A stretch of 20,000 nucleotides of DNA from an uncultured virus (IMG/VR IMGVR_UViG_3300033075_001711). Its lineage: Duplodnaviria; Heunggongvirae; Uroviricota; Caudoviricetes. This document shows positions 385 through 14,729 of this stretch, one piece after another. The notes under the pieces are model-generated. The model had not been told where the DNA came from and did no database searches. It was given only the letters and a program-made list of their open reading frames with translations. Each line of letters starts with the position of its first letter. Position 1 is the stretch's first letter. The translations under genes were made by a program, and so were the position numbers. The stretch lies in the IMG/VR virus record IMGVR_UViG_3300033075_001711. One strand, given 5' to 3'.

Positions 385-939
385 TTGATTTACAGAGCAA
401 AAGATATAAGAATTATATTATTTAAATTTTTGAAAGAAGAGTATAAAGACATCTATATAATGGAGGAGAAAGAAATTTATAAATCCATTGTAGATATCTT
501 TTGTATTAAAGGGAATAATTTATTAGGGTTAGAGATAAAATCGGATACTGACTCATTAAAAAGGTTGCCGAGACAAGTAAAAAATTATGATAAGATTTTT
601 GATTTTAATATTGTTGTAATAACAGAGAAGTGGGTTGAGAAAGTAAAAGATATTTTACCTAAACATTGGGGAATTTTTTTAATTAAAGAAGATAGTTGTG
701 AAATTATTAAATCTCCTTTAGTTAATCCTAATAGAGATGAGTATAAATTAAGTTGGTTATTATGGAAACCAGAGTGTAGAGAGTTATTAAAAAGAAATAA
801 TTTATTGCGTGGTTTTTCATATAAAGCTAAAAAGTATTTAAATAAACGTATAGCTAGTAAAATAAAAATAGATAATATAAAAGAGTATTTAATTGAATGT
901 TTTTTAAAAAGAGATTGGGATAAGGTAAAGAGATTATGA
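385..939 (+). CDS. sce7726-like PD-(D/E)XK nuclease-fold protein
   Basis: 'IVDIFCI...GLEIKSDTDSLKRLPRQVKNYDKIFD...VV' and 'LPKHWGI' match my recollection of the sce7726 family signature (D...EIKS.D.L.RL..Q...Y...FD). TTG start. Confidence 0.7.
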   Translation: MIYRAKDIRIILFKFLKEEYKDIYIMEEKEIYKSIVDIFCIKGNNLLGLEIKSDTDSLKRLPRQVKNYDKIFDFNIVVITEKWVEKVKDILPKHWGIFLIKEDSCEIIKSPLVNPNRDEYKLSWLLWKPECRELLKRNNLLRGFSYKAKKYLNKRIASKIKIDNIKEYLIECFLKRDWDKVKRL

Positions 940-1271
940 ATGATTTAAAACGATGTAAAGTTTACTATTTAGGAATAGCTAAAGAATTTAAAGACATTAT
1001 GAGATTTTATGATGTTAATTCTATTTTTCCGTTTGATTTCAATGCTAGAGTAGAATCTGTATTTTGTGGTAAAGATACTATTGGTCTTTTTAAACAGTTG
1101 AGGGATTTAAAATCTCAAAAAATAGAAGGCTCTTTTGGTAATATTGATGGAATAGATTTTTTTGTAAATGAAAATTTACCTCCGGACACATTTATGGTGG
1201 TATCAAATGAATTATATAGGAATCAAAAATCTTTTGGGCCTTTTGATAAGTTAGATATTATTTGGGGATAA
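936..1271 (+). CDS. Hypothetical protein, one divergent copy of a capsid A-domain-like unit
   Basis: ATGA overlap with the upstream gene. 'ARVESVFCG...GNIDGIDFFVNENLPPDTFMVVSNE' aligns by eye to the units in the next two genes. Confidence 0.5.
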   Translation: MNDLKRCKVYYLGIAKEFKDIMRFYDVNSIFPFDFNARVESVFCGKDTIGLFKQLRDLKSQKIEGSFGNIDGIDFFVNENLPPDTFMVVSNELYRNQKSFGPFDKLDIIWG

Positions 1272-1277
1272 TAGATA

Positions 1278-1907
1278 ATGTATAAAATAGAATATAAAGC
1301 AACTCCAAGTAGTATTTCAGAATTAGCAGATGCTTTTGCTATAATAGAAGAACATAACTATAGGGTTGCAAAACTTACAATGAATAATTACACTGAAAAA
1401 AATTTAATTTTGCCTCTGTATAATGGATTTTCTTCAGGAGATAGTTTTTGGGGTGCGGATATTTATATAGATGACACTTTAATGAATTATGAGGTTATAT
1501 TAGAAAGTGAAAAATATAAACATCTTGAATTTAGAAAAAACATTAAAGGTTTAAGATATGTAGATTTATCTGGTAAATATTATTTGACATCAGAAATATT
1601 TGATTGTAAAAAATTAACAGATTTTTTAGATGGGTTATGTCCTATTGAAAATCAATGTAGTTATAGGATATCTTATTTTTGTTTAAATGCTAAAACACAT
1701 AAAATGCTTAAAGAAAATTGTCCTTCTATATATGATAACGATTTAATTGTTTTAGGTTCTCATGTGTTTATAGATAATAGTTTAGAAACTGGACATGTAA
1801 TATTTGTAAGTGATTCATTTACGGATGAAATTTTTGCAGAAAATATCAAGTTAGACCTTGATATTAGTGTAAAATTATGTGAGAATAAAAATTATGTTAG
1901 AAGTTAA
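1278..1907 (+). CDS. Hypothetical protein with two tandem capsid A-domain-like units
   Basis: Unit 1 (aa 16-92): LADAFAIIEEHNYRVAKLTMN...FWGADIYIDDTL...VILESE...FRKNIKGL. Unit 2 (aa 116-194): FLDGLCPIENQCSYRISYFCLN...VLGSHVFIDNSL...VIFVSD...FAENIKLDL. Confidence 0.6.
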   Translation: MYKIEYKATPSSISELADAFAIIEEHNYRVAKLTMNNYTEKNLILPLYNGFSSGDSFWGADIYIDDTLMNYEVILESEKYKHLEFRKNIKGLRYVDLSGKYYLTSEIFDCKKLTDFLDGLCPIENQCSYRISYFCLNAKTHKMLKENCPSIYDNDLIVLGSHVFIDNSLETGHVIFVSDSFTDEIFAENIKLDLDISVKLCENKNYVRS

Positions 1908-2184
1908 TTTATTTTATGATAATGGATTTGTGGAAAAAACAAGTCCAGCAGAATTTATGTTTACTAGTTTTAATTTTGTGGAAAAAGATTTAAAACTTAG
2001 AGTAGATGAAATTAAACTGTCTCAAGATTTTTATATTAAATTATTTAATTCTTTGTTAGAATATCCTAATTCTTATTATCAAACATTCCCAGAAGAATCT
2101 TTTATGGATGCTATGCTGCTGGGAGCAGATGTTATATTAGATGATAGAGATGTAGAAGCTATAACTTTAATTTGTGATGATTAG
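1894..2184 (+). CDS. Hypothetical protein, one capsid A-domain-like unit
   Basis: In-frame ATG at 1894 overlaps the previous gene's end and is preferred over GTG 1879. 'TSFNFVEKDLKLRVDEIKLSQDFYIKL...LLGADVILDD...ITLICDD' aligns to the units of 1278..1907. Confidence 0.55.
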   Translation: MLEVNLFYDNGFVEKTSPAEFMFTSFNFVEKDLKLRVDEIKLSQDFYIKLFNSLLEYPNSYYQTFPEESFMDAMLLGADVILDDRDVEAITLICDD

Positions 2185-2214: not shown

Positions 2215-2940
2215 ATGGAAAATAAAAAATGTAATAAATGTAATGTGATATATGAAGTTTCAAATTTTTATAAAAGAGGCAAAAGAAAATCTGGAGACAT
2301 TACATATACTTGTTGGTGTAAACAATGCTGGTCTGCACACTATAAAAACTATGTTACAAATAATTTAGATACTAGAAATAAATATTTAAAAAAATATAAG
2401 CAGACAGATAAATATAAAAATTCCGTTTTAAAAAACAATTTAAAAAGAAAAGATAAAATAAAAGAATATTACGAACTAAATAAAAAAAGAATATGGTTTG
2501 ATAAATATTATTTTAAATATAGAAATGACTCCACTTTTAGATTGAAAGTTAGAATGTCAAACAATGTCCGTAGTTTTTTACAAAAAGGTAAAAATTGGGG
2601 CTCTTGGCACAAATTAGTTGGATATTCATTGCTAACTTTAAAATCTCATTTAGAAAATCTTTTTTTACCTGGAATGTCTTGGGACAATTTTAAAAGAGGT
2701 GGGTGGTCAATAGATCATATTCAACCTTTATCTTCTTTTAGGTATGTTCGACATCAAGATAATGAATTTAAAAATGCTTGGAAATTACAAAATTTAAGAC
2801 CTTTGTGGGAAAAAGATAATTTATTAAAAAATTCAATTTGGCAAGGTAAAAAAAGAAAATTTCAATTTGTTAATGTACCATACATATTCTCTTTTACAGA
2901 AAACATTAAGTTAATTTCAAAAGGAATTTTATATCAATGA
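2215..2940 (+). CDS. Free-standing HNH (homing-type) endonuclease with N-terminal Zn finger
   Basis: N-terminal CNKC...CKQC and a basic helical middle. C-terminal 'LVGYSLLTLKSHLENLFLPGMSWDN..GGWSIDHIQPLSSF...NLRPLWEKDNLLK' is typical of a widespread viral HNH family. Confidence 0.85.
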   Translation: MENKKCNKCNVIYEVSNFYKRGKRKSGDITYTCWCKQCWSAHYKNYVTNNLDTRNKYLKKYKQTDKYKNSVLKNNLKRKDKIKEYYELNKKRIWFDKYYFKYRNDSTFRLKVRMSNNVRSFLQKGKNWGSWHKLVGYSLLTLKSHLENLFLPGMSWDNFKRGGWSIDHIQPLSSFRYVRHQDNEFKNAWKLQNLRPLWEKDNLLKNSIWQGKKRKFQFVNVPYIFSFTENIKLISKGILYQ

Positions 2941-4070
2941 TTAAAAAATTATTTTTATGCTATTTAATATCTATTTTAATAGCATGTAATTCTTCTCCTC
3001 CATGTAATGTTACAAAAAATTGTGGGGGGGGGCCTACTCCAACTCCTGTTACTATGAGCATAACTGTTCAAGGAAACAGTATTTTTGTAAATGGTAAGAA
3101 AACATTTATGCGAGGCTATTCAGGGTTTGGTTCTTGTTATAATGCGGAACCTAAAGAATCTTGGGATGCCTGGTTTTCTAAATTAGAAAAAGCAGGAGTT
3201 AATTATAGTAGAGTGTGGCTAGTCCCGATCCCAGATTCGTGGGTGCCTCAAGGATATGTGAACATGCAAAACACATTTTTAAAAATGCCAAATGGCAAAT
3301 ATGATTTAACAAAACTAAATCCAAAATTTGTAGAAAATGTTCATAATGTTTTAAATGCTGGGGCTAGGCATGGAATTGTTTTTCAAGTGTCATTAGCAGA
3401 CAAGGTTTTAGGGAAATATCCTGAAGATTTTAAAACACATCCTTACAATAAAAACAATGGTGGATTTATTACTCCTAATTCAAATGGGCAAGGTTGGCCT
3501 CAAGGGTGGGAGCTTCAATATGATCAGGATTGGAAAAATTTAGCTGATTTATATATGAGTGTATTATCTATCCATACCAACGTTTTAATAGAAGTTATTA
3601 ATGAGCCCGAGATGGGAAAAGACAATAAATTAGGTACACCAGAACAAATAAATCGTTGGCATATGATGATGTTGACATATTTAAGAAATAAATATCCTGG
3701 AGTTAAATTAGTTATTAGTCCTGTAAGACTTTCGGGTTTAAAATTTGTTCCTGACATTAATTTACCTGCAGATATTATTTCAGCTCATGGGGCTGGGTTT
3801 TTACCGGATACTCCTAAAGGAAGATATTTTACAGATGCCGAAATGATATCTGAATGGAAAGCGTGTTTGAGTAAAATGTTAGGAAAACCAGTTATTTGTG
3901 ATGATGATGGATTACCACGAGAAAGAAATGATAATAAAATTGTCATGAATTGGAGAAAATTATCAGAAAAGATAGGTTTTGCAGGTTTTCAACATAGAGA
4001 TGATGAATTTGTTCCTCCTGGAAGTGTTGTAGATGATGAGGCAATTAAGGTAATAGGCGCTAATTATTAA
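2937..4070 (+). CDS. Lipoprotein with clan GH-A (GH5-like) TIM-barrel glycoside hydrolase domain
   Basis: Signal peptide MIKKLFLCYLISILIA-C, then a GGGPTPTP linker. 'ITVQGNSIFVNGKKTFMRG', 'LEKAGVNYSRVW', 'YDLTKLNPKF', 'ARHGIVFQVSL', acid/base motif 'EVINEP', 'DIISAH', 'GKPVICDDDG'. Confidence 0.75.
   Translation: MIKKLFLCYLISILIACNSSPPCNVTKNCGGGPTPTPVTMSITVQGNSIFVNGKKTFMRGYSGFGSCYNAEPKESWDAWFSKLEKAGVNYSRVWLVPIPDSWVPQGYVNMQNTFLKMPNGKYDLTKLNPKFVENVHNVLNAGARHGIVFQVSLADKVLGKYPEDFKTHPYNKNNGGFITPNSNGQGWPQGWELQYDQDWKNLADLYMSVLSIHTNVLIEVINEPEMGKDNKLGTPEQINRWHMMMLTYLRNKYPGVKLVISPVRLSGLKFVPDINLPADIISAHGAGFLPDTPKGRYFTDAEMISEWKACLSKMLGKPVICDDDGLPRERNDNKIVMNWRKLSEKIGFAGFQHRDDEFVPPGSVVDDEAIKVIGANY
3024..3032 (+). 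repeat. G9 homopolymer in the 5' part of the GH lipoprotein gene
   Basis: tgt-GGGGGGGGG-cct, encoding Gly-Gly-Gly; the longest G run I saw in this AT-rich window. Confidence 0.9.
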
Positions 4071-4097: not shown

Positions 4098-4139
4098 AAT
4101 GGTAAATTGAACATGGTTTAATTTACCATTTTATTTTTT
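4098..4139 (+). terminator. Rho-independent terminator-like hairpin
   Basis: aatggtaaattgaac-atg-gtttaatttaccatt (15-bp stem with one G-U) followed by ttattttt; intergenic. Confidence 0.7.
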
Positions 4140-4153
4140 ATAAGGAAAATATA

Positions 4154-4912
4154 ATGAGTGCTCTTGTACAAGAAATGGTTCGAGTTATGCATAACGGAGC
4201 GTATATTCCTTCTAGCAACGATGATTATGTGTTTCGCACATCCCCCATTTATTTATGGGATTTAGGGAATAGGGCTCAGGATACTATAAATAAAAAAGGA
4301 CAATCAACATATCTATCCTATAATGGAGAAATGCCTGGAAGTCCAAGATACACAAATATAACATTTAACAAAAAAGGTGTAGATTTATTACCTACTGGAG
4401 AAGTTGAGCAAAGTTTAGATTCGGGTGTTATTGAAAAATTAGAGGCTCGTGGTTTAGTTAAAAAAATGCCTGCATTTGAGACTTATTTAACTTCAGCATA
4501 TTCTGGTGGAACAACACTAACTGTTGGATCAACTACTGGAATGCCTGCTACTCCTAGAGTAGTAGAGATAAATGGGATATATCGAAGAAGAGTTGCTAGT
4601 TTTACAGCTACTACAATTGTAATGGATTCAGCAATTTCTGGAACTTTTGATGTTAACACTAAAATCACATTTCTTAGATCTACTGTAGAAACTAAATTAG
4701 CTTCAAATTATATTACTGGTGCCACTACAATGGTGGTTGAATCTAGAGATGGTTTAGATGGGTTAACTGGAGTAGCTTTAAATGTTTATATGGGCGGATA
4801 TTCCACAACACTAGATTCTGGTGCTACTATTAGTTCTACTACTATTGATTTAACTTCTGGTATTGCAGCTACATTACCAAAAGGCACACAAGTTTTAATA
4901 ACCGTATTTTAA
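4154..4912 (+). CDS. Putative virion (decoration-like) protein, paralog 1 of 3
   Basis: SD-like taagga upstream. N-domain 'RVMHNG...IYLWDLGNRAQD...GQSTY...DLLPT.EV..S...G.I.K' plus two Thr/Ser/Gly-rich beta repeats. Homologous to 4929..5675 and 8025..8750. Virion role inferred from composition and context. Confidence 0.55.
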   Translation: MSALVQEMVRVMHNGAYIPSSNDDYVFRTSPIYLWDLGNRAQDTINKKGQSTYLSYNGEMPGSPRYTNITFNKKGVDLLPTGEVEQSLDSGVIEKLEARGLVKKMPAFETYLTSAYSGGTTLTVGSTTGMPATPRVVEINGIYRRRVASFTATTIVMDSAISGTFDVNTKITFLRSTVETKLASNYITGATTMVVESRDGLDGLTGVALNVYMGGYSTTLDSGATISSTTIDLTSGIAATLPKGTQVLITVF

Positions 4913-4928
4913 TTAAGGAAATAATTAA

Positions 4929-5675
4929 ATGTCTCAAAAATTACGAGTAATGCATTTTGGTGAATTTGGATCAGTTACAGATGACCAAGCATTAAAAACA
5001 AAAACAAATCCTATTTATTTAGATGATGTTGGTAATAGATCATTAGATAATATAGATACTAGAGGTCAATCTCAATATATTACTATAGATGGTTCTGTTC
5101 GACCTACTTCTACTGCTTATGGAAAAGAAAAGCATCCTAAAAAAGTAGTTGATTTAGTTCCAACTTCTGAAGTTCTTTTAAGTTCTTGGAAAGGAAATCT
5201 TAAAAAATTACGAGATCTCCAACTAATTAAAACTGAAGATGTTTTTGATGTTGTAGTAGCAACTGCTTATACTGCTGGATCTACTTCTTTAGTAGTGTCT
5301 TCTGCTACAGGTTTTCCTTCAACTGGAGCTGTTGAAATAGGAGAAGTAATTGTTAGATATACTGCGGTCACATCAAATACCTTAACTTTAGTTACTGGAG
5401 GTTTTGGAGATAGCTTTGATGTTGGAACTAGAGTATTAGTTCATAGGTCTTTTGGTGAAACTAAATTAGTTTCAACTTACACTTCTTCTGGTGTAGAAAC
5501 TACTTTTAGTGTTGAAACGGTAGGAGGTTTAGCTTCAACTGGAACAGTTTACGCTGATAATAAAAGTAAAGCTTATTCTGCTATCAACACTTCTTTAAAT
5601 ACTATTACTTTAAGTTCAGCATTTTCTTCTGGAACACAATTTATTTCAGGAACTAGAGTATTTGCAACTAGTTAA
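4929..5675 (+). CDS. Putative virion (decoration-like) protein, paralog 2 of 3
   Basis: SD-like taagga. 'LRVMHFG...IYLDDVGNRSLD...RGQSQY...DLVPTSEVLLS..KGNLKK' plus repeats 'TAYTAGSTSLVVSSATG..STG.V...YTAVT.NT.TL...GTRV'. Confidence 0.55.
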   Translation: MSQKLRVMHFGEFGSVTDDQALKTKTNPIYLDDVGNRSLDNIDTRGQSQYITIDGSVRPTSTAYGKEKHPKKVVDLVPTSEVLLSSWKGNLKKLRDLQLIKTEDVFDVVVATAYTAGSTSLVVSSATGFPSTGAVEIGEVIVRYTAVTSNTLTLVTGGFGDSFDVGTRVLVHRSFGETKLVSTYTSSGVETTFSVETVGGLASTGTVYADNKSKAYSAINTSLNTITLSSAFSSGTQFISGTRVFATS

Positions 5676-5700: not shown

Positions 5701-6825
5701 ATGAAAAAATATATTATATGTGTAAGTATTTTTTATACTTTTTTATTAGGGGGTTGTGGTGCATTATTTAATAACAACCCTCCAATAACACCGCATCCAG
5801 ACACAACTCCTATTGCTACAATTAGTGCAACCCCAACTCAAACACCTACAAATATTCCAACCCCAATAGCACAAGGACCTAAAGAATTTAGTTTAGTAAA
5901 TAATACTACATATTCTTTAGCAGACGGGGTATTTCCAGACATAGCTGGAGATGCTAATAAAGTAAAAATTTGTTATCTTTCGGGTAAAAAAGTTACTATA
6001 TTAACAATGGAAACTTTCTCAGGAAAATTATTAGATAAAAAAGAAATTAATGTTAACTCTCAAAGTCCAGTAAAATATTTTTTACCGAAAATTTCGGTAG
6101 ACAATGTGTTATTTAGAAATATAGCTAGTTTTGGTGGAAGTGTTGTTTCTCAAATAAAAACTGAAAATGATTTAATTTCAGAAGGAGATTTTGAGACTTA
6201 TGACATAACACAAAATTTTATAGTTTTAGGTGGAAATGATCCTTTAGGTGGATTTTTTTATTCTAAATCAGGTAATTCGTGGGTAGGCCCAACAAAAATA
6301 GAGAATAGAGCTTTATATCCTTTTAGTTTGAAAGAATATAATGGGCAAGCTGTTATGTTTGAGAGAAACACTGTTAGAGTATTTCCTAATGGAAAAACTT
6401 TAACTTTTAAACCTGTAGGTAAAACATCTTATGATATTGTTGGTTTTGTTGTTAAAGGAGATACTATTTTTGGTGTTTCTCATTTATGGACAAAAACAGG
6501 AGATTCTTGGGCACCTTCTGGTAAAATAGAGATAATGTTTGCTAATTTAAAATCTGATAAAGATCTAATGCATCAATATCTAATGACTTCAGATACTTCT
6601 GGTTTAAAAAATAATACTAGTTTAATGCCACAATTATTTGTAATAGAAAATCAACTGTATTTTGTTGTATCTATAAAGAATATAGCTAAAATTTATAAAG
6701 TAAAAGACAATTTTTCTTTAGAAGAAATTAAAACTATAAATAACTGTGGGCAACCAATTGTGTTTAGTTTTGGAAATAATGTCTGGTTAGTTTCTTTACA
6801 AGGTATTTATTATGGAAGACTCTAA
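5701..6825 (+). CDS. Lipoprotein with Pro/Thr linker and beta-rich (possibly propeller) domain
   Basis: MKKYIICVSIFYTFLLGG-C lipobox-like signal, then PPITPHPDTTP...TPTQTPTNIPTP linker; the rest is short beta-strand/turn segments. Confidence 0.6.
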   Translation: MKKYIICVSIFYTFLLGGCGALFNNNPPITPHPDTTPIATISATPTQTPTNIPTPIAQGPKEFSLVNNTTYSLADGVFPDIAGDANKVKICYLSGKKVTILTMETFSGKLLDKKEINVNSQSPVKYFLPKISVDNVLFRNIASFGGSVVSQIKTENDLISEGDFETYDITQNFIVLGGNDPLGGFFYSKSGNSWVGPTKIENRALYPFSLKEYNGQAVMFERNTVRVFPNGKTLTFKPVGKTSYDIVGFVVKGDTIFGVSHLWTKTGDSWAPSGKIEIMFANLKSDKDLMHQYLMTSDTSGLKNNTSLMPQLFVIENQLYFVVSIKNIAKIYKVKDNFSLEEIKTINNCGQPIVFSFGNNVWLVSLQGIYYGRL

Positions 6826-7487: not shown

Positions 7488-7793
7488 ATGCCAAACAAAT
7501 ACTATAAATATTTTTATGAAGATACAACAGATAAAGCTCTATATCACCATGACCCTGGTATGGATGATAGAAGTCCTCTAGCTATTAAAACAAAAGTTCC
7601 AGTTGTAGATAAAAGTATTCCTATAGTTCATTGGGATAATCCAGGGTCTTTTAGTTTTTGGCCTGTTCCTGTAAATGAGCCTCCACACTCAAGACCTTTT
7701 ATAGATCAAGGTCTAATAAAACAACAATCAATTTTAAATCTAAGTAAAAAACTTAAAGATTCTTATTTAGATAGAAAAAAAATTAATGTTTGA
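7488..7793 (+). CDS. Pro-rich hypothetical protein
   Basis: 101-aa ORF starting 3 nt after the previous stop. Confidence 0.55.
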   Translation: MPNKYYKYFYEDTTDKALYHHDPGMDDRSPLAIKTKVPVVDKSIPIVHWDNPGSFSFWPVPVNEPPHSRPFIDQGLIKQQSILNLSKKLKDSYLDRKKINV

Positions 7794-8024: not shown

Positions 8025-8750
8025 ATGTCAGCTTTAATTCAAGATAAACTAAGAGTTATGCACAATGGCTCTTATATGAGTGCTTCGGATGAAAAATACA
8101 ATCTCCGAACCTCTTTAATTTATTTAACCGATATTGGAAATCGTGCTCAAGATAATGTTTATGATCGAGGACAATCCCAATATGTAACTTCTGTGGGCTC
8201 TGCTCCTGGCGAATCTGATTTCGTTTCAGGACACTCCGGCAGACGTGCTATAGATTTAGTCAAAACTAATAAAGTTTTAATTAGCCAAGACCAAGGCGAA
8301 ATTAAAAAATATTCTGATTTAAATTTAATTCGAACTGTTGAAATAAAAGAAACAGAAGTAGATACTGCTTATACTGCTGGAACTTCTTTAGTAGTTAAAG
8401 ATTCAACTGGCCTTTCTTCAACTGGAACTGTAGAAGTTTCTAATGAAGTTCGAAGATATACTGCAGTTACTGGTAATACTATAACTCTTGCCACCGCATT
8501 TACAAATGCTCACGCATCAGGATCAAGAGTAAAATTTTATGCCTCTATGCAAGAGACTAAAGTTTCTACTGCTTATACCTCTGGAACTACTCTTGTGGTA
8601 GAAAGCACTCGCGGAGTGACAGGAACTTCAGGAACAGTTTATATTGGAACAGAATCTGTAGCATATTCAGCCGTATCTGGATCCAACGTAACTATCTCTG
8701 CCCTAACTAATGATTATGCTGTAGGAACTAGAGTCCTATTAGTAGTTTAA
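8025..8750 (+). CDS. Putative virion (decoration-like) protein, paralog 3 of 3
   Basis: ggag upstream. 'MSALIQDKLRVMHNG...IYLTDIGNRAQD...RGQSQY...DLVKT.KVLIS...GEIKK' plus two repeats 'ET.V.TAYT.GT.LVV..(S/T)TG...GTV...E...Y.AV.G...T....GSRV/GTRV'. Confidence 0.55.
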   Translation: MSALIQDKLRVMHNGSYMSASDEKYNLRTSLIYLTDIGNRAQDNVYDRGQSQYVTSVGSAPGESDFVSGHSGRRAIDLVKTNKVLISQDQGEIKKYSDLNLIRTVEIKETEVDTAYTAGTSLVVKDSTGLSSTGTVEVSNEVRRYTAVTGNTITLATAFTNAHASGSRVKFYASMQETKVSTAYTSGTTLVVESTRGVTGTSGTVYIGTESVAYSAVSGSNVTISALTNDYAVGTRVLLVV

Positions 8751-10047: not shown

Positions 10048-11136
10048 ATGTTTCAAGAAAACATGTCAATGCGAGAGAACAATAATTGTCAAAGTGCATT
10101 TTATACTGGAGATGGTTGTATTTCTCTTGAAAAACACAAAGAAAAAATTTTAGGTATGTCTATAACAATAAAACAAACAGATATTAGACCACTAGAAAAT
10201 TTTCAAAAATTTTTTGATTGTGGAAACATTACAGGTCCATATGTATCAAAAAATCCAAATGTAAATCCAATTTGGCGATATAAATGCTCAAAAATATCTG
10301 ATGTTTTAAATGTAATTCATCTCATGTGGGATAATTTGCCATATTTTAGAAAAAAACAAGCATATAATGTTATTATGGAATACTATAGTTCTGAAAAAAG
10401 AAAAATTGTTCCAGATTTTACAAAATATAAATGGAACAGTTTTAATGTTGATATCACAAATGAATTTTTTGAAATAGATAGAACATTTAGAGAAAAATGT
10501 GCTTGGTGTGCTGGGATATACAACAGTGAAGGATCTACATCATTTCATAAAGGTCCGGTTGTTGTGGGTAGTGTGCGGTGTGGTATTTCACAAGTAGATC
10601 CTGATCCTATTAATTTTTTTGTTGATTGTTTTGAAAAATTTGATAGAAACATTCAAATTCGAATGGAGTCAAAAAATCTAAAAAATATAAATCATAGAGA
10701 TTGTCATAAATTAGATGTAAATTCAATAGAAGCAGTTAAATATATTATAGATTCTATGTGGTTTGCATTATCTGAGCCTAAACGTGAGCAGTATAATAAA
10801 GTTGTAGATCTATATTTAGAAAGTGTAAAAAATTCTACTGCATGTAAATTTAAAACAAAATGTAAATTCGGCCATGAATTCACAGATGAAAATACTCGAA
10901 TATATGATGGTAAAAGAGTATGTAAACAATGCTCTAGGGATAAAGTTAAAAAACATTCAGAGAAATTAAAAAATAATCCAGATCGAAATATTCAACAAGA
11001 AATTTTAGAATATATTTCTAAACATAATATTTGTAAAAACAACCATGTATTAACTTTGGAGAATGTTAGAATGAGTGGAATTTCTGCTAGATGTAAAGAT
11101 TGTGATAAAATGCAACGAGAGAAACTAAAAAATTAA
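10048..11136 (+). CDS. Free-standing two-motif LAGLIDADG endonuclease with C-terminal Cys/His repeats
   Basis: Motif 1 'SAFYTGDGCI...ITIKQTDIRPLENFQKFFDCGNI'. Motif 2 'AWCAGIYNSEGS...GISQVDPDPI'. Tail 'CKFGHEFTDENTRIYDGKRVCKQC' and 'CKNNHVLTLENVRM...RCKDC'. SD-like gaaagg upstream. Confidence 0.8.
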   Translation: MFQENMSMRENNNCQSAFYTGDGCISLEKHKEKILGMSITIKQTDIRPLENFQKFFDCGNITGPYVSKNPNVNPIWRYKCSKISDVLNVIHLMWDNLPYFRKKQAYNVIMEYYSSEKRKIVPDFTKYKWNSFNVDITNEFFEIDRTFREKCAWCAGIYNSEGSTSFHKGPVVVGSVRCGISQVDPDPINFFVDCFEKFDRNIQIRMESKNLKNINHRDCHKLDVNSIEAVKYIIDSMWFALSEPKREQYNKVVDLYLESVKNSTACKFKTKCKFGHEFTDENTRIYDGKRVCKQCSRDKVKKHSEKLKNNPDRNIQQEILEYISKHNICKNNHVLTLENVRMSGISARCKDCDKMQREKLKN

Positions 11137-11213: not shown

Positions 11214-14200
11214 ATGAGCAGTATACCAATAGGAAATAGACCGTTAAAGATTCCATATGTTTCGACGACTACAGTAGTTGAGAATCCTCGTCCTAGATTT
11301 GCATCTTTAGAGCATACGCATACATTAGCAGATATAGTTCCTGGAATATCTCACAGTGAGTTGTTAGATTTAACCGCAAATGATCATCCTCAGTATGTTT
11401 ATAAGCTTGGGGATACGATGGAGGGGTTTTTATCTTTATATAAAGATCCTGTGGCACCAAAACATGCTGTAACAAAAGCATATTCAGATGCACATGCGGG
11501 GCATGAAATTCAATCTAATTCTGTTACATTACCTAAAAAAGAATTTCTTAATTTTTTAGGTTCAGAGTTTACAGTAGTAAACGATTCAACATCTACTACT
11601 ATATCTTTTAATTTTACAAGTATAGATCATAATACATTAGATAATTTAACTGTAGGGAATCCACATACTCAATATGTTTTAAAAGCTGGGGATACTTTAT
11701 CAGGAGCTTTAATAAATTACAGCAATACTCCAACTTTAAATTTAGAGTTAGTTCCGAAAATTTATGTTGATACTTTAGTTAGCACTTCAATTGCTGCTGC
11801 AGTAATTACAGATCATAATTTATTGGACAATTTAACTGTAGGGAACCCACATACCCAATATGTTTTAAAAGCTGGGGATACTTTAACAGGTCAATTGTTA
11901 TTATATTCTACTACACATACAAATATTTTAGAGGCTGTTAGTAAAGGGTATGTAGACAGTAATTTTACTAAAGATCATAGTTCGCTAATTAATTTAAATA
12001 CAGGAAATCCGCATCCTCAGTATCCATTAAAAACAGGGGATATTTTTTCAGGTGTTTTAAAATTAAATATTTCTCCAATAGATCCAGATGATGCTGTAAG
12101 GAAAGATTATGTAGATAGTGTAATTATAAATGATCATGGGGATTTATTAGGGTTGGAGGATATTGAAGATCATCCAGGGTATATTGTTGTTACAGGAGCA
12201 AGACCATTTGATGGTGATCAATCAATGGGGAACAATAAATTAACAGATTTATTGGATCCTGTGGATAATTTAGATGCTGTAAATTTACAGACATTAAATT
12301 CTAGTATAACTACAGCAATTACAAACAATAATACAAATAGTTCTTTTCAAACTAAAGTTATTTCTTTAACTGATGATACTCCGACATTAACTTTAGGAAA
12401 TAGATATATTGTTCCGGATCCTACTTTATATGTGAGTTGGTTAGGGCAAGAAAATAAAATAGCTGAATATAATGGAATTGGTTGGGATTTTACAATTCCG
12501 AATAAAGGAACTGTTCTTTTTGTAGAGGATCAAAATAAAATATTTTATTTTACAGATGATTTTCCTTTAGGGGTGTGGGAAAATTTAAATAATTTATTTG
12601 ATCATAGTTTATTACAAAATTTAGGGGTAGATTCGCATACTCAATATGTTCATAATACATCTAATAGAGTAATTACAGCTCAACATACTTTTAATTTTAG
12701 TGGATCTCCGTTTTTGTTAGGAGTGGGCAGTACAGGTGTTTTGGTATCGGGATTAAATTCTGATTTATTAGATGGGGAGCATGGTTCTTATTATTTAGAT
12801 TGGAATAATTTTCCTGGAACAATCCCTTTAATTAAATTACCTACAACAGGAATAGATGCGGATACATTGGATGGGTTAGATTCCACGGCATTTAGTTTAA
12901 TAAGTCATAACCATAATCACAATAGTTTAACAAATTTAACTGTAGGTGATCCACATACTCAATATTTGTTAGTAAATGGAACAAAAGCATTTACAGGAAA
13001 TCAATCCCTAGGTGGATTTAAAATTACAAATTCAGCGGATCCAACTTCTAATTTAGATTTAGCAAATAAACAGTATGTAGATTCTCAGGTGTCAAATATA
13101 GAAAACATTTTAAATTTGATTTCCTGGCAGGGTCCAATTGTAAATAATACTTTAACTTCTCCACCTGTAGGGCCTGCTCTTAATTCTCAATATATTGTAG
13201 CTTCTGTGGGTTCTGGGGCTTGGTTAGGACAAACAAATAACATTGCATTTTGGAATGGGTCAAGTTGGATTTTTTATGTTCCTGTAGAAGGGACAACAAC
13301 ATATTTACAAAATGTAAATAAATATTCTTTTTTCAATGGGTCTTCTTGGGTTTATTTAGATACGATTATAGATCATAGTTTACTACAAAATTTAAATGTG
13401 GATTCTCACACACAATATACCCATAATTCTATAAATCGGACAATTACAGCAACACATACATTTAATCCTTTTTCTGTGGGGGCTCCATTTATATTAGGGG
13501 CAAACTCTTTAAATCAATTTGTGTCTGGATTGAATTCTGATTTATTAGATGGTGAGCATGGCTCCTATTATTTAGATTGGAATAATTTTCCTGGAAATGT
13601 GCCATTATATAAAATACCATCTGGAATAGATGCAGATACACTAGATGGATTAGATTCAACAGCATTTAGTTTAACAAGCCATAATCATAGTCATAATAGT
13701 TTGACAGGTTTAACTACAGGAGATCCACATACTCAATATGTAAATAAATTTGTTGCCTCTTCTATTTTAGCTAGACATACTTTTGATACAGCGGGCTCCC
13801 CATTTATTTTGGGATCTGGAGCAATAAATCAATTGGTTTCGGGTTTGAATTCAGAATATTTAGATGGGGAATTAGGAATTTATTATTTAGATAGAGACAA
13901 CCATTTTGGAACAACACCATTAAGTTCTATTCCACAAGGTTCAGGATCTACTTTAGATGCAGATAAATTAGATGGATTAGATTCAACCGCATTTAGTTTA
14001 GTTTCTCACACACATGATCATAATAGTTTGTCGAATTTATCAATTGGAAACGTACACTCTCAATATGTTCATAGAACAATAAACAATGGGGCTATAACAG
14101 CAAAATATACTTTCAATACGAGTGGTTCCCCATTTTTGTTAAGTGGAAGTTCTGTGGGATTTTTAGTTAGTGGTTTAAATGCTGATTTATTAGATGGGTA

Positions 14201-14729
14201 TCATGCTAGTGATTTTATATTAGCGAATACTTTACCAAGTATTGAAATTGATATATATGCTCCAGCAAATACTGATCCTGTTCCTTTGACATTAACTGAA
14301 GGGGATTTATATTTTAATAAACAATTGTTGGAATATATGTATTATGATGGGACTCGGAGTAAGTGGTTAAGTATAAACACTATTTCAATACAAGCGGGAA
14401 GAAAAGGGGATACTCTTCCTGGGTCATATTATCGAGGAGTTGATGGTATGACTTTGGATGGTGCGGATAGAGTATTTTCAGTTCCAAAAGGAACTATAAC
14501 AGCAGTATCTTGGTCCCAAACGAGTTCTTCTTCAGCAACATTAGAAATATTAAATAATGGGGCAACTTTAGGTGTACCTGCAGAAGTTGTTTTATCTTCA
14601 AGTGGTACTGTTAGAGTAGATACCAAAAATGTAAATATTCAAGCCGGGACATTATCTTTTAGAAATAAATTGGGTGGAAATACTACAACTAACGTTCAGA
14701 TAATAATTGAAATTAAAAAGCGGATTTAA
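11214..14729 (+). CDS. Long modular fibre protein (His-rich repeats, two DUF2793-like domains)
   Basis: Ten H..L..L...(P/D/S/V)H.(Q/G)Y units, seven (D/N)(A/S)(D/E).LDG units, stalk-like 'GNNKLTDLLDP...DAVN' and 'GGFKITNSADP...ANKQYVD'. Two 'YIV......WLGQ.N.IA..NG..W.F..P..GT' domains at about 12400-12560 and 13190-13350. Confidence 0.75.
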   Translation: MSSIPIGNRPLKIPYVSTTTVVENPRPRFASLEHTHTLADIVPGISHSELLDLTANDHPQYVYKLGDTMEGFLSLYKDPVAPKHAVTKAYSDAHAGHEIQSNSVTLPKKEFLNFLGSEFTVVNDSTSTTISFNFTSIDHNTLDNLTVGNPHTQYVLKAGDTLSGALINYSNTPTLNLELVPKIYVDTLVSTSIAAAVITDHNLLDNLTVGNPHTQYVLKAGDTLTGQLLLYSTTHTNILEAVSKGYVDSNFTKDHSSLINLNTGNPHPQYPLKTGDIFSGVLKLNISPIDPDDAVRKDYVDSVIINDHGDLLGLEDIEDHPGYIVVTGARPFDGDQSMGNNKLTDLLDPVDNLDAVNLQTLNSSITTAITNNNTNSSFQTKVISLTDDTPTLTLGNRYIVPDPTLYVSWLGQENKIAEYNGIGWDFTIPNKGTVLFVEDQNKIFYFTDDFPLGVWENLNNLFDHSLLQNLGVDSHTQYVHNTSNRVITAQHTFNFSGSPFLLGVGSTGVLVSGLNSDLLDGEHGSYYLDWNNFPGTIPLIKLPTTGIDADTLDGLDSTAFSLISHNHNHNSLTNLTVGDPHTQYLLVNGTKAFTGNQSLGGFKITNSADPTSNLDLANKQYVDSQVSNIENILNLISWQGPIVNNTLTSPPVGPALNSQYIVASVGSGAWLGQTNNIAFWNGSSWIFYVPVEGTTTYLQNVNKYSFFNGSSWVYLDTIIDHSLLQNLNVDSHTQYTHNSINRTITATHTFNPFSVGAPFILGANSLNQFVSGLNSDLLDGEHGSYYLDWNNFPGNVPLYKIPSGIDADTLDGLDSTAFSLTSHNHSHNSLTGLTTGDPHTQYVNKFVASSILARHTFDTAGSPFILGSGAINQLVSGLNSEYLDGELGIYYLDRDNHFGTTPLSSIPQGSGSTLDADKLDGLDSTAFSLVSHTHDHNSLSNLSIGNVHSQYVHRTINNGAITAKYTFNTSGSPFLLSGSSVGFLVSGLNADLLDGYHASDFILANTLPSIEIDIYAPANTDPVPLTLTEGDLYFNKQLLEYMYYDGTRSKWLSINTISIQAGRKGDTLPGSYYRGVDGMTLDGADRVFSVPKGTITAVSWSQTSSSSATLEILNNGATLGVPAEVVLSSSGTVRVDTKNVNIQAGTLSFRNKLGGNTTTNVQIIIEIKKRI
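11625..11890 (+). repeat. 80-bp direct repeat pair in the fibre gene (11625-11704 and 11811-11890)
   Basis: Manual comparison gives 73/80 identical bases; encodes DHN(T/L)LDNLTVGNPHTQYVLKAGDTL(S/T)G. Confidence 0.9.
12600..13739 (+). repeat. ~366-bp internal duplication in the fibre gene (12600-12965 and 13371-13739)
   Basis: Both copies encode DHSLLQNL.VDSHTQY...SGLNSDLLDGEHGSYYLDWNNFPG...GIDADTLDGLDSTAFSL.SHNH.HNSLT.LT.GDPHTQY. A third, more divergent copy follows to about 14070. Confidence 0.85.

Follow-up and report, generated by a model that had tools for sequence, protein, structure and literature searches.

Tandem duplication of a small protein module, possibly akin to a capsid A-domain, in an accessory operon of an uncultured phage

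We analysed a 20,000-nucleotide stretch of DNA (hereafter the window) from an uncultured virus of the class Caudoviricetes (IMG/VR record IMGVR_UViG_3300033075_001711) and focused on three small, adjoining genes near its start, here called A, B, and C. Gene B is a tandem duplication of a single module, of which its amino acid sequence leaves us certain. As to the fold of that module, we tentatively favour, on the strength of predicted structures, stand-alone units resembling the axial (A) domain of HK97-fold capsid proteins and duplicated in tandem. The genes and modules in question are as follows (pI, isoelectric point).

Gene A: 936..1271, + strand; open reading frame (ORF) of 111 amino acids, pI 5.4; an orphan and putative module copy
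Gene B: 1278..1907, + strand; ORF of 209 amino acids, pI 5.0; two modules
B1, first module of B: 1278..1565, + strand; residues 1-96
B2, second module of B plus tail: 1566..1907, + strand; residues 97-209, with the stop at 1905-1907
Gene C: 1894..2184, + strand; ORF of 96 amino acids from an ATG, pI 4.05 (very acidic); probable single module

The evidence for the duplication comes from a comparison of the two halves of B. BLASTP aligned them with an E value of 4e-6 (20/79 identities), and the Smith-Waterman score of B1 against B2 (z score 8.1) was reached by none of 1000 shuffled sequences, as was the score of their semi-global alignment (z 5.9, 0/1000 shuffles). An AlphaFold2 model of B built from the single sequence was poor, with a predicted local distance difference test (pLDDT) score of 40.6; helix-strand...strand could be seen in it twice, with B1 drawn as strand-helix-strand...strand. 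This model was dropped, and its Foldseek list was noise, with template modelling (TM) scores of at most 0.23.

Support for a capsid-like fold comes from two sets of models. The first is an AlphaFold model of B2, for which the input was an alignment of five rows drawn from the window itself: B2 at the top, followed by B1, A, and C in two pieces. The best model reached a pLDDT of 70.3 and a predicted TM score (pTM) of 0.64 (the other four models, 36-56), and is made up of five strands and three helices arranged b-a-b-a-b-b-a-b. An initial annotation of the window, made from the sequence, had proposed a helix-strand-helix-strand-strand order for the unit, which matches this prediction. The same helix-strand-helix-loop-strand-strand order, with a glycine ahead of the fourth strand, is predicted for the modules as for the A-domains of HK97-fold capsid proteins such as T4 gp23 (PF07068), HK97 gp5 (PF05065), and lambda gpE (PF03864).

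The second set was taken from the ESM Atlas, which has models of its own for B (pLDDT 0.62) and for C (pTM 0.62, pLDDT 0.68). For C, HK97-type families make up 6/10 neighbour rows, with TM scores by query of 0.58-0.70. The C neighbours include:

Phage_cap_E: TM by query 0.70 (93 residues aligned) and 0.64
Phage_capsid_4: TM 0.62 and 0.61
Family 4C 'A-domain' encapsulin of 95 amino acids: TM 0.61/0.62, 82 residues aligned
Major_capside/DUF6260: TM 0.58
Small viral hypothetical proteins of 70-72 amino acids (two rows): TM 0.59 by query, 0.74-0.76 by row

For B, capsid families (Phage_capsid_4, Phage_capsid, and SU10_MCP) account for six of the nine rows, and the matches fall on each half separately, at residues 1-87 (also 6-82) and 85-196. 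The capsid families retrieved from the Atlas have only the HK97 fold in common, and we therefore take the A-domain to be their common denominator. The axial domain of HK97-fold capsid proteins would thus be the structural likeness of the module with the best support.

Several observations weigh against this interpretation. With regard to the models themselves, the B2 model had no matches at E ≤ 0.001 when Foldseek was run against the PDB and BFVD. Its top PDB rows were ferredoxin-like, named capsids came up at BFVD ranks 20 and 48 only, and neither a capsid chain nor 2PK8, the encapsulin reference structure discussed below, was among the matches listed from the Foldseek-PDB, VIA-wide, and VIA second-look searches. 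The Atlas models are only moderately confident, the service marks each of their capsid rows 'under the bar: name no family', and a fold proposed by a language model depends in part on the same pattern recognition that gave rise to the finding. The structural comparison with HK97-fold capsids that was suggested with the initial annotation has therefore had a divided outcome: most neighbours of B and C in the Atlas are capsid families, whereas the AlphaFold model of the B unit retrieved no solved capsid chain among the matches listed.

Sequence comparisons likewise offered the capsid link no support. The initial annotation had described the sequence as "especially close" to the capsid proteins of large phages, and this did not hold. 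Searches of Pfam, PHROGs, NCBIfam, and PDB sequences, even at E ≤ 10, returned no capsid, encapsulin, or other family, and nothing relevant came from querying the PDB sequences with A1, A4, and C. As a stand-in for the capsid gene of this phage we assembled 69 gp23 sequences, comprising those from the 68/80 IMG/VR loci with a full-length frame together with gp23 of S-RIM8. When three unit alignments were compared with these 69 by hhalign, the probabilities were 0.1-0.2% and none aligned in the A-domain region; a profile of the unit had no match in the entire S-RIM8 genome. A profile of HK97 gp5 was not used because its relatives in IMG/VR, at 94-100% identity, are too uniform. Thus, compared with the HK97-fold capsids of clan CL0373, the modules have no detectable sequence or profile similarity, and they lack any shell-forming part.

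Broader searches were equally unproductive. A phmmer search of 1.84 billion representative proteins with B found B itself only, which also counts against a capsid relationship, and a word-indexed search of 5.8 billion proteins with A, B, and C returned only the queries. A tblastn search with B of 50,697 phage records gave two noise matches (E 0.4-0.5). Scans of IMG/VR with B, with the phrog_984 neighbour upstream of A, and with a neighbouring protein of 252 amino acids, as well as a search of Joint Genome Institute (JGI) metagenome contigs with an exact 44-base pattern, were empty or returned only the source itself.

A generic alpha/beta fold is nearly as likely as a capsid A-domain-like one. 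According to this alternative, the modules are two-layer alpha/beta domains of the ferredoxin-like or ACT-like type, without any evolutionary or functional tie to capsids, and serve, for example, as ligand- or protein-binding accessory proteins. We consider it possible but somewhat unlikely. ACT domains are often duplicated in tandem, as is the module in B. The comparators here are repeats of ACT or ferredoxin-like domains (e.g., 6LPI_E, 3TVI, and 2JHE); the ACT fold runs b-a-b-b-a-b, and no ACT-type clusters were found among the Atlas matches listed. The AlphaFold and Atlas routes disagree on the predicted fold of the module. If the modules are not A-domains, the three genes are an ordinary orphan accessory cluster with one internal duplication.

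The second question is how many copies of the module there are. The initial annotation had counted four, one in A, two in B, and one in C, and had proposed an amplified family. Gene C is probably a further diverged copy. Against a hidden Markov model (HMM) of B1 and B2, C scored 5.1 bits, which 42/2000 shuffled sequences equalled or exceeded (p ~0.02), and it was the top hit (E 0.1) among the 60 non-self frames of at least 50 amino acids in the window. Its pairwise Smith-Waterman scores were not significant (B2-C, 28/1000 shuffles, z 2.5; B1-C, 192/1000), and neither was the semi-global alignment of B2 and C (79/1000) or the number of columns invariant in B1 and B2 that C matches (8/25, reached by 79/300 shuffles). 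An alternative register, in which residues 4-55 of C lie on the strand pair and tail of B2 (z 2.5, 28/1000; also in MAFFT) and one unit is split over the B/C junction, was rejected as the principal reading because the Atlas matches cover residues 2-96 of C as a single domain.

Gene A is possibly a copy as well, and here the tests weigh against the four-copy proposal, with neither statistical nor structural support for A. It scored -0.1 bits against the HMM of B1 and B2, with 725/2000 shuffles as high, and it fell outside the 12 best window frames for that HMM. In the pairwise Smith-Waterman tests its scores were reached by 418, 866, and 768 of 1000 shuffles, and it matched 11 of the 25 invariant B1/B2 columns (22/300 shuffles reach that). 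MAFFT placed the R-V strand motif and the G-x-D-h-x-h-N..L motif of A under those of B1 and B2, and hhalign set both A and C on the G-strand motif, with probabilities of only 0.3% and 2%, respectively. Judged by these alignments, the tally is two copies shown, one probable (C), and one unproven (A). The B1/B2 pair of the four-copy claim therefore stands, with C marginal and A at the level of chance; amplification is real insofar as at least one unit was duplicated, but the four-fold version of it is statistically unsupported.

Elsewhere in the window, the N-terminus of a 101-amino-acid ORF at 7488-7793 resembles residues 58-90 of C (2065-2163), with 42% identity and a BLASTP E value of 2e-4 (z 4.4); at the DNA level, identity over the same regions is low (42/99 columns). 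The match is either due to chance or the trace of an old duplication of a fragment.

These observations bear on a more sceptical explanation, namely that the duplication in B alone is real, that A and C are unrelated orphans, and that the four-fold consensus is a post-hoc pattern in small, AT-rich, compositionally similar proteins. We regard this as unlikely, though it has points in its favour: A is inseparable from shuffled sequence in all objective tests, C reaches just p ~0.02, and the unrelated ORF at 7488-7793 gives a better local match to C than B does, so that such local matches evidently arise easily. On the other hand, C is not only the best of the 60 frames but also directly adjoins B, structural neighbours of like kinds are retrieved independently for B and for C by their Atlas models, and MAFFT brings the two motifs of A into register with those of B1 and B2, their order preserved.

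All three are genuine accessory genes that are restricted to their lineage. We conclude this because their frames are far longer than expected by chance, their third-position GC content (GC3) fits, they are tightly coupled, public gene calls are identical, and variants are free of insertions and deletions (indels). At the local composition, chance would give about 0.17 open frames of 96 codons in 20 kb x 6 frames, about 0.035 of 111 codons, and 0.000 of 209 codons. The GC3 of A, B, and C is 0.11-0.16, as for other genes of the window; the start ATG of A overlaps the stop of the gene upstream, and B and C overlap by 14 nt. All three frames lie on the + strand where the initial annotation had placed them, which the ORF list and the public call for C (the identical 96 amino acids) confirm, and the public calls for A and B are identical too.

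The same genes can be followed in metagenome contigs of four sequencing runs, which we aligned to the stretch. In run X2, one contig spans 1277-1946 and shows 4 substitutions and 0 gaps, and pieces from run X5 over 1423-1925 and 2012-2162 show no differences. Pieces over A are ~95% identical and gap-free, with 15/301, 9/194, and 10/149 bases differing. The variant contigs, which come from several studies, thus differ from A, B, and C by substitutions but not by indels. Divergence along the stretch is uneven, with 0-4 differences in B and C, ~95% identity in A, and ~93% in the lipoprotein gene further downstream (51/709 bases differing over 3061-3769).

The capsid-like pattern in short ORFs without homologues might suggest that A, B, and C are what remains of a full-length capsid gene that was duplicated and is decaying, or are not genes at all; this is, however, highly improbable, since the frames are intact, coupled, and indel-free in variant contigs of several studies, their GC3 is that of coding genes, a 209-codon frame is essentially impossible by chance, and no P-domain, E-loop, or gp23 remnants lie between or around the units.

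If the modules are A-domains, the nearest precedent is the Family 4 'A-domain' encapsulins (PF08967/DUF1884, PF0899; reference structure 2PK8), as set out by Andreas & Giessen (2021; PMC8346489). There, the Family 4 A-domain is described as ~100 amino acids with two helices around a central four-stranded sheet, in ninety-five systems from Euryarchaeota and Rhodothermus/Rubricoccus whose function is unexplained; the archaeal members form two-gene operons downstream of genes for hydrogenase, OsmC, GAPDH, or DeoC. A resemblance between the A subdomain of capsid proteins and PF0899 is noted in a further paper (PMC11476376). Like Family 4 encapsulins, the modules are stand-alone and about 100 amino acids long, and they would be HK97 A-domain-like without P-domain, E-loop, or N-arm; neither group has a proven function. 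Their predicted order of secondary-structure elements may also agree with the published A-domain description (PMC8346489).

The differences are nevertheless considerable. No match to PF08967 or to the NCBIfam encapsulin models was obtained with A, B, B1, B2, or C (E ≤ 10). The modules are phage-borne and in tandem, with two of them fused in B, whereas Family 4 is archaeal or from Rhodothermus; and the neighbours of the array (a metallophosphoesterase fragment, an sce7726-like nuclease, an HNH endonuclease, and a lipoprotein) are not of the enzyme types found in Family 4 operons. Because both sequence and operon context differ, we have not filed the modules as members of Family 4. Our literature search found no description of free-standing capsid A-domains in phages, and they are known only as the Family 4 encapsulins of hyperthermophiles (PMC8346489).

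What might such modules do? Under the capsid A-domain reading, the products of the three genes would consist of small alpha/beta modules, soluble and acidic, each of ~80-100 residues and with elements running strand-helix-strand-helix-strand-strand; the tandem duplication gave rise to B, and C probably and A possibly would be further copies. Without P-domain, E-loop, or N-arm, the modules cannot form a shell, and the initial annotation was right that the genes are too short for that and belong to an accessory block. If the reading is true, they present the surface that builds pentons and hexons, and would mimic, in soluble form, the capsomer-forming face of the capsid protein. Their binding partner would be either the capsid protein of the phage itself before assembly or a host protein able to recognise that face. 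The initial annotation had suggested that they could serve as decoys for capsid-sensing defences, interfere with competing phages or satellites, or modulate assembly.

Host proteins of this kind have been described. According to a 2026 preprint (10.64898/2026.01.04.697583), Avs7, Avs8, and Avs10 bind the penton/hexon-forming face of the capsid A-domain, and CapRel(SJ46) is reported to touch its capsid trigger at a loop of the A-domain (PMC9712102). We infer that soluble, acidic, diverged copies could compete for capsid sensors or for unassembled capsid protein. The most specific version, in which the array consists of amplified, fast-diverging free capsid A-domains that are expressed from the accessory operon and occupy or blunt host immune sensors of the capsomer-forming face, we consider improbable. 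Were it true, multiple diverged copies, two of them fused, would widen the range of sensors covered, and the array would be the first anti-defence system made of capsid-domain mimics. More generally, if the modules are A-domains, a phage with several diverged soluble copies would offer a testable system, in which either mimicry of a conserved viral pattern at the molecular level or a new type of assembly regulator could come to light. The finding is not yet a discovery, and it merits a structural test.

The genes around the array are listed below.

Metallophosphoesterase-like gene, 3' end: 2-382; upstream of the array
phrog_984 (sce7726-like, nuclease-like) gene: 385..939, + strand; PHROG E 2.5e-30; directly upstream of A
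HNH / endonuclease VII-like gene: 2215..2940, + strand; PHROG 1035, E 3.2e-10; downstream of C
Lipoprotein gene, 377 amino acids: 2937-4070; downstream of the HNH gene
Terminator-like hairpin: 4098..4130, + strand; 15-pair stem followed by a T run

Relatives of the phrog_984 neighbour in phage records are labelled endonuclease, exonuclease, or sce7726 family. The hairpin at 4098-4130 probably closes the accessory operon that includes A-B-C, just ahead of the structural genes. The HNH gene is absent from contigs of runs X2 and X13, where 124 other letters connect position 2187 with 3061; it is therefore optional and lies outside the array. The HNH gene at 2215-2940 is probably a mobile homing endonuclease, because this pattern of presence and absence is typical of such genes. 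Sigma-70-like promoter sites were uninformative (31 versus 32.1 expected). The sequence TATAAATA has 10 occurrences versus 6.6 expected, none of them on the + strand ahead of the array.

The source is a large, low-GC, T4-like phage. All genes in the window point in one direction, and the GC content is 0.24-0.27 in the first 3 kb and 0.27-0.35 beyond; in a public protein collection, A, B, and C belong to one contig of 195,833 bases. A 457-amino-acid virion protein in the window matches PHROG 1645 (E 3.7e-81), and its closest relatives among the 50,697 phage records are from T4-like cyanomyoviruses (~35% identity, 160 records). The window also contains long tail-fibre genes with DUF2793 repeats and a head-tail connector-like gene. 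Contigs with parts of the stretch come from several studies, whose metagenomes are of the sludge, wastewater, and bioreactor type, and no RNA run is listed among the sequencing runs with parts of the stretch.

Further features of the window deserve mention. Three paralogous proteins of ~245 amino acids (4154-4912, 4929-5675, and 8025-8750) are 39-41% identical, share 66 invariant columns, and have no family match; no relatives were found in IMG/VR, even with their alignment as query, and they are probably lineage-specific virion proteins. Between the connector-like and tail-fibre genes, 10048-11136 encodes a protein of 362 amino acids with a LAGLIDADG match at its N-terminus and HNH-type PHROG matches at its C-terminus. 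The 1171-amino-acid tail-fibre protein encoded at 11214-14729 carries an internal motif of the 'G(N/D)PH(T/P)QY' type, repeated several times, and two DUF2793 stretches. Finally, the proteins encoded at 2937-4070 and 5701-6825, which have no family match, both begin with a lipoprotein-like N-terminus in which a hydrophobic stretch is followed by a cysteine.

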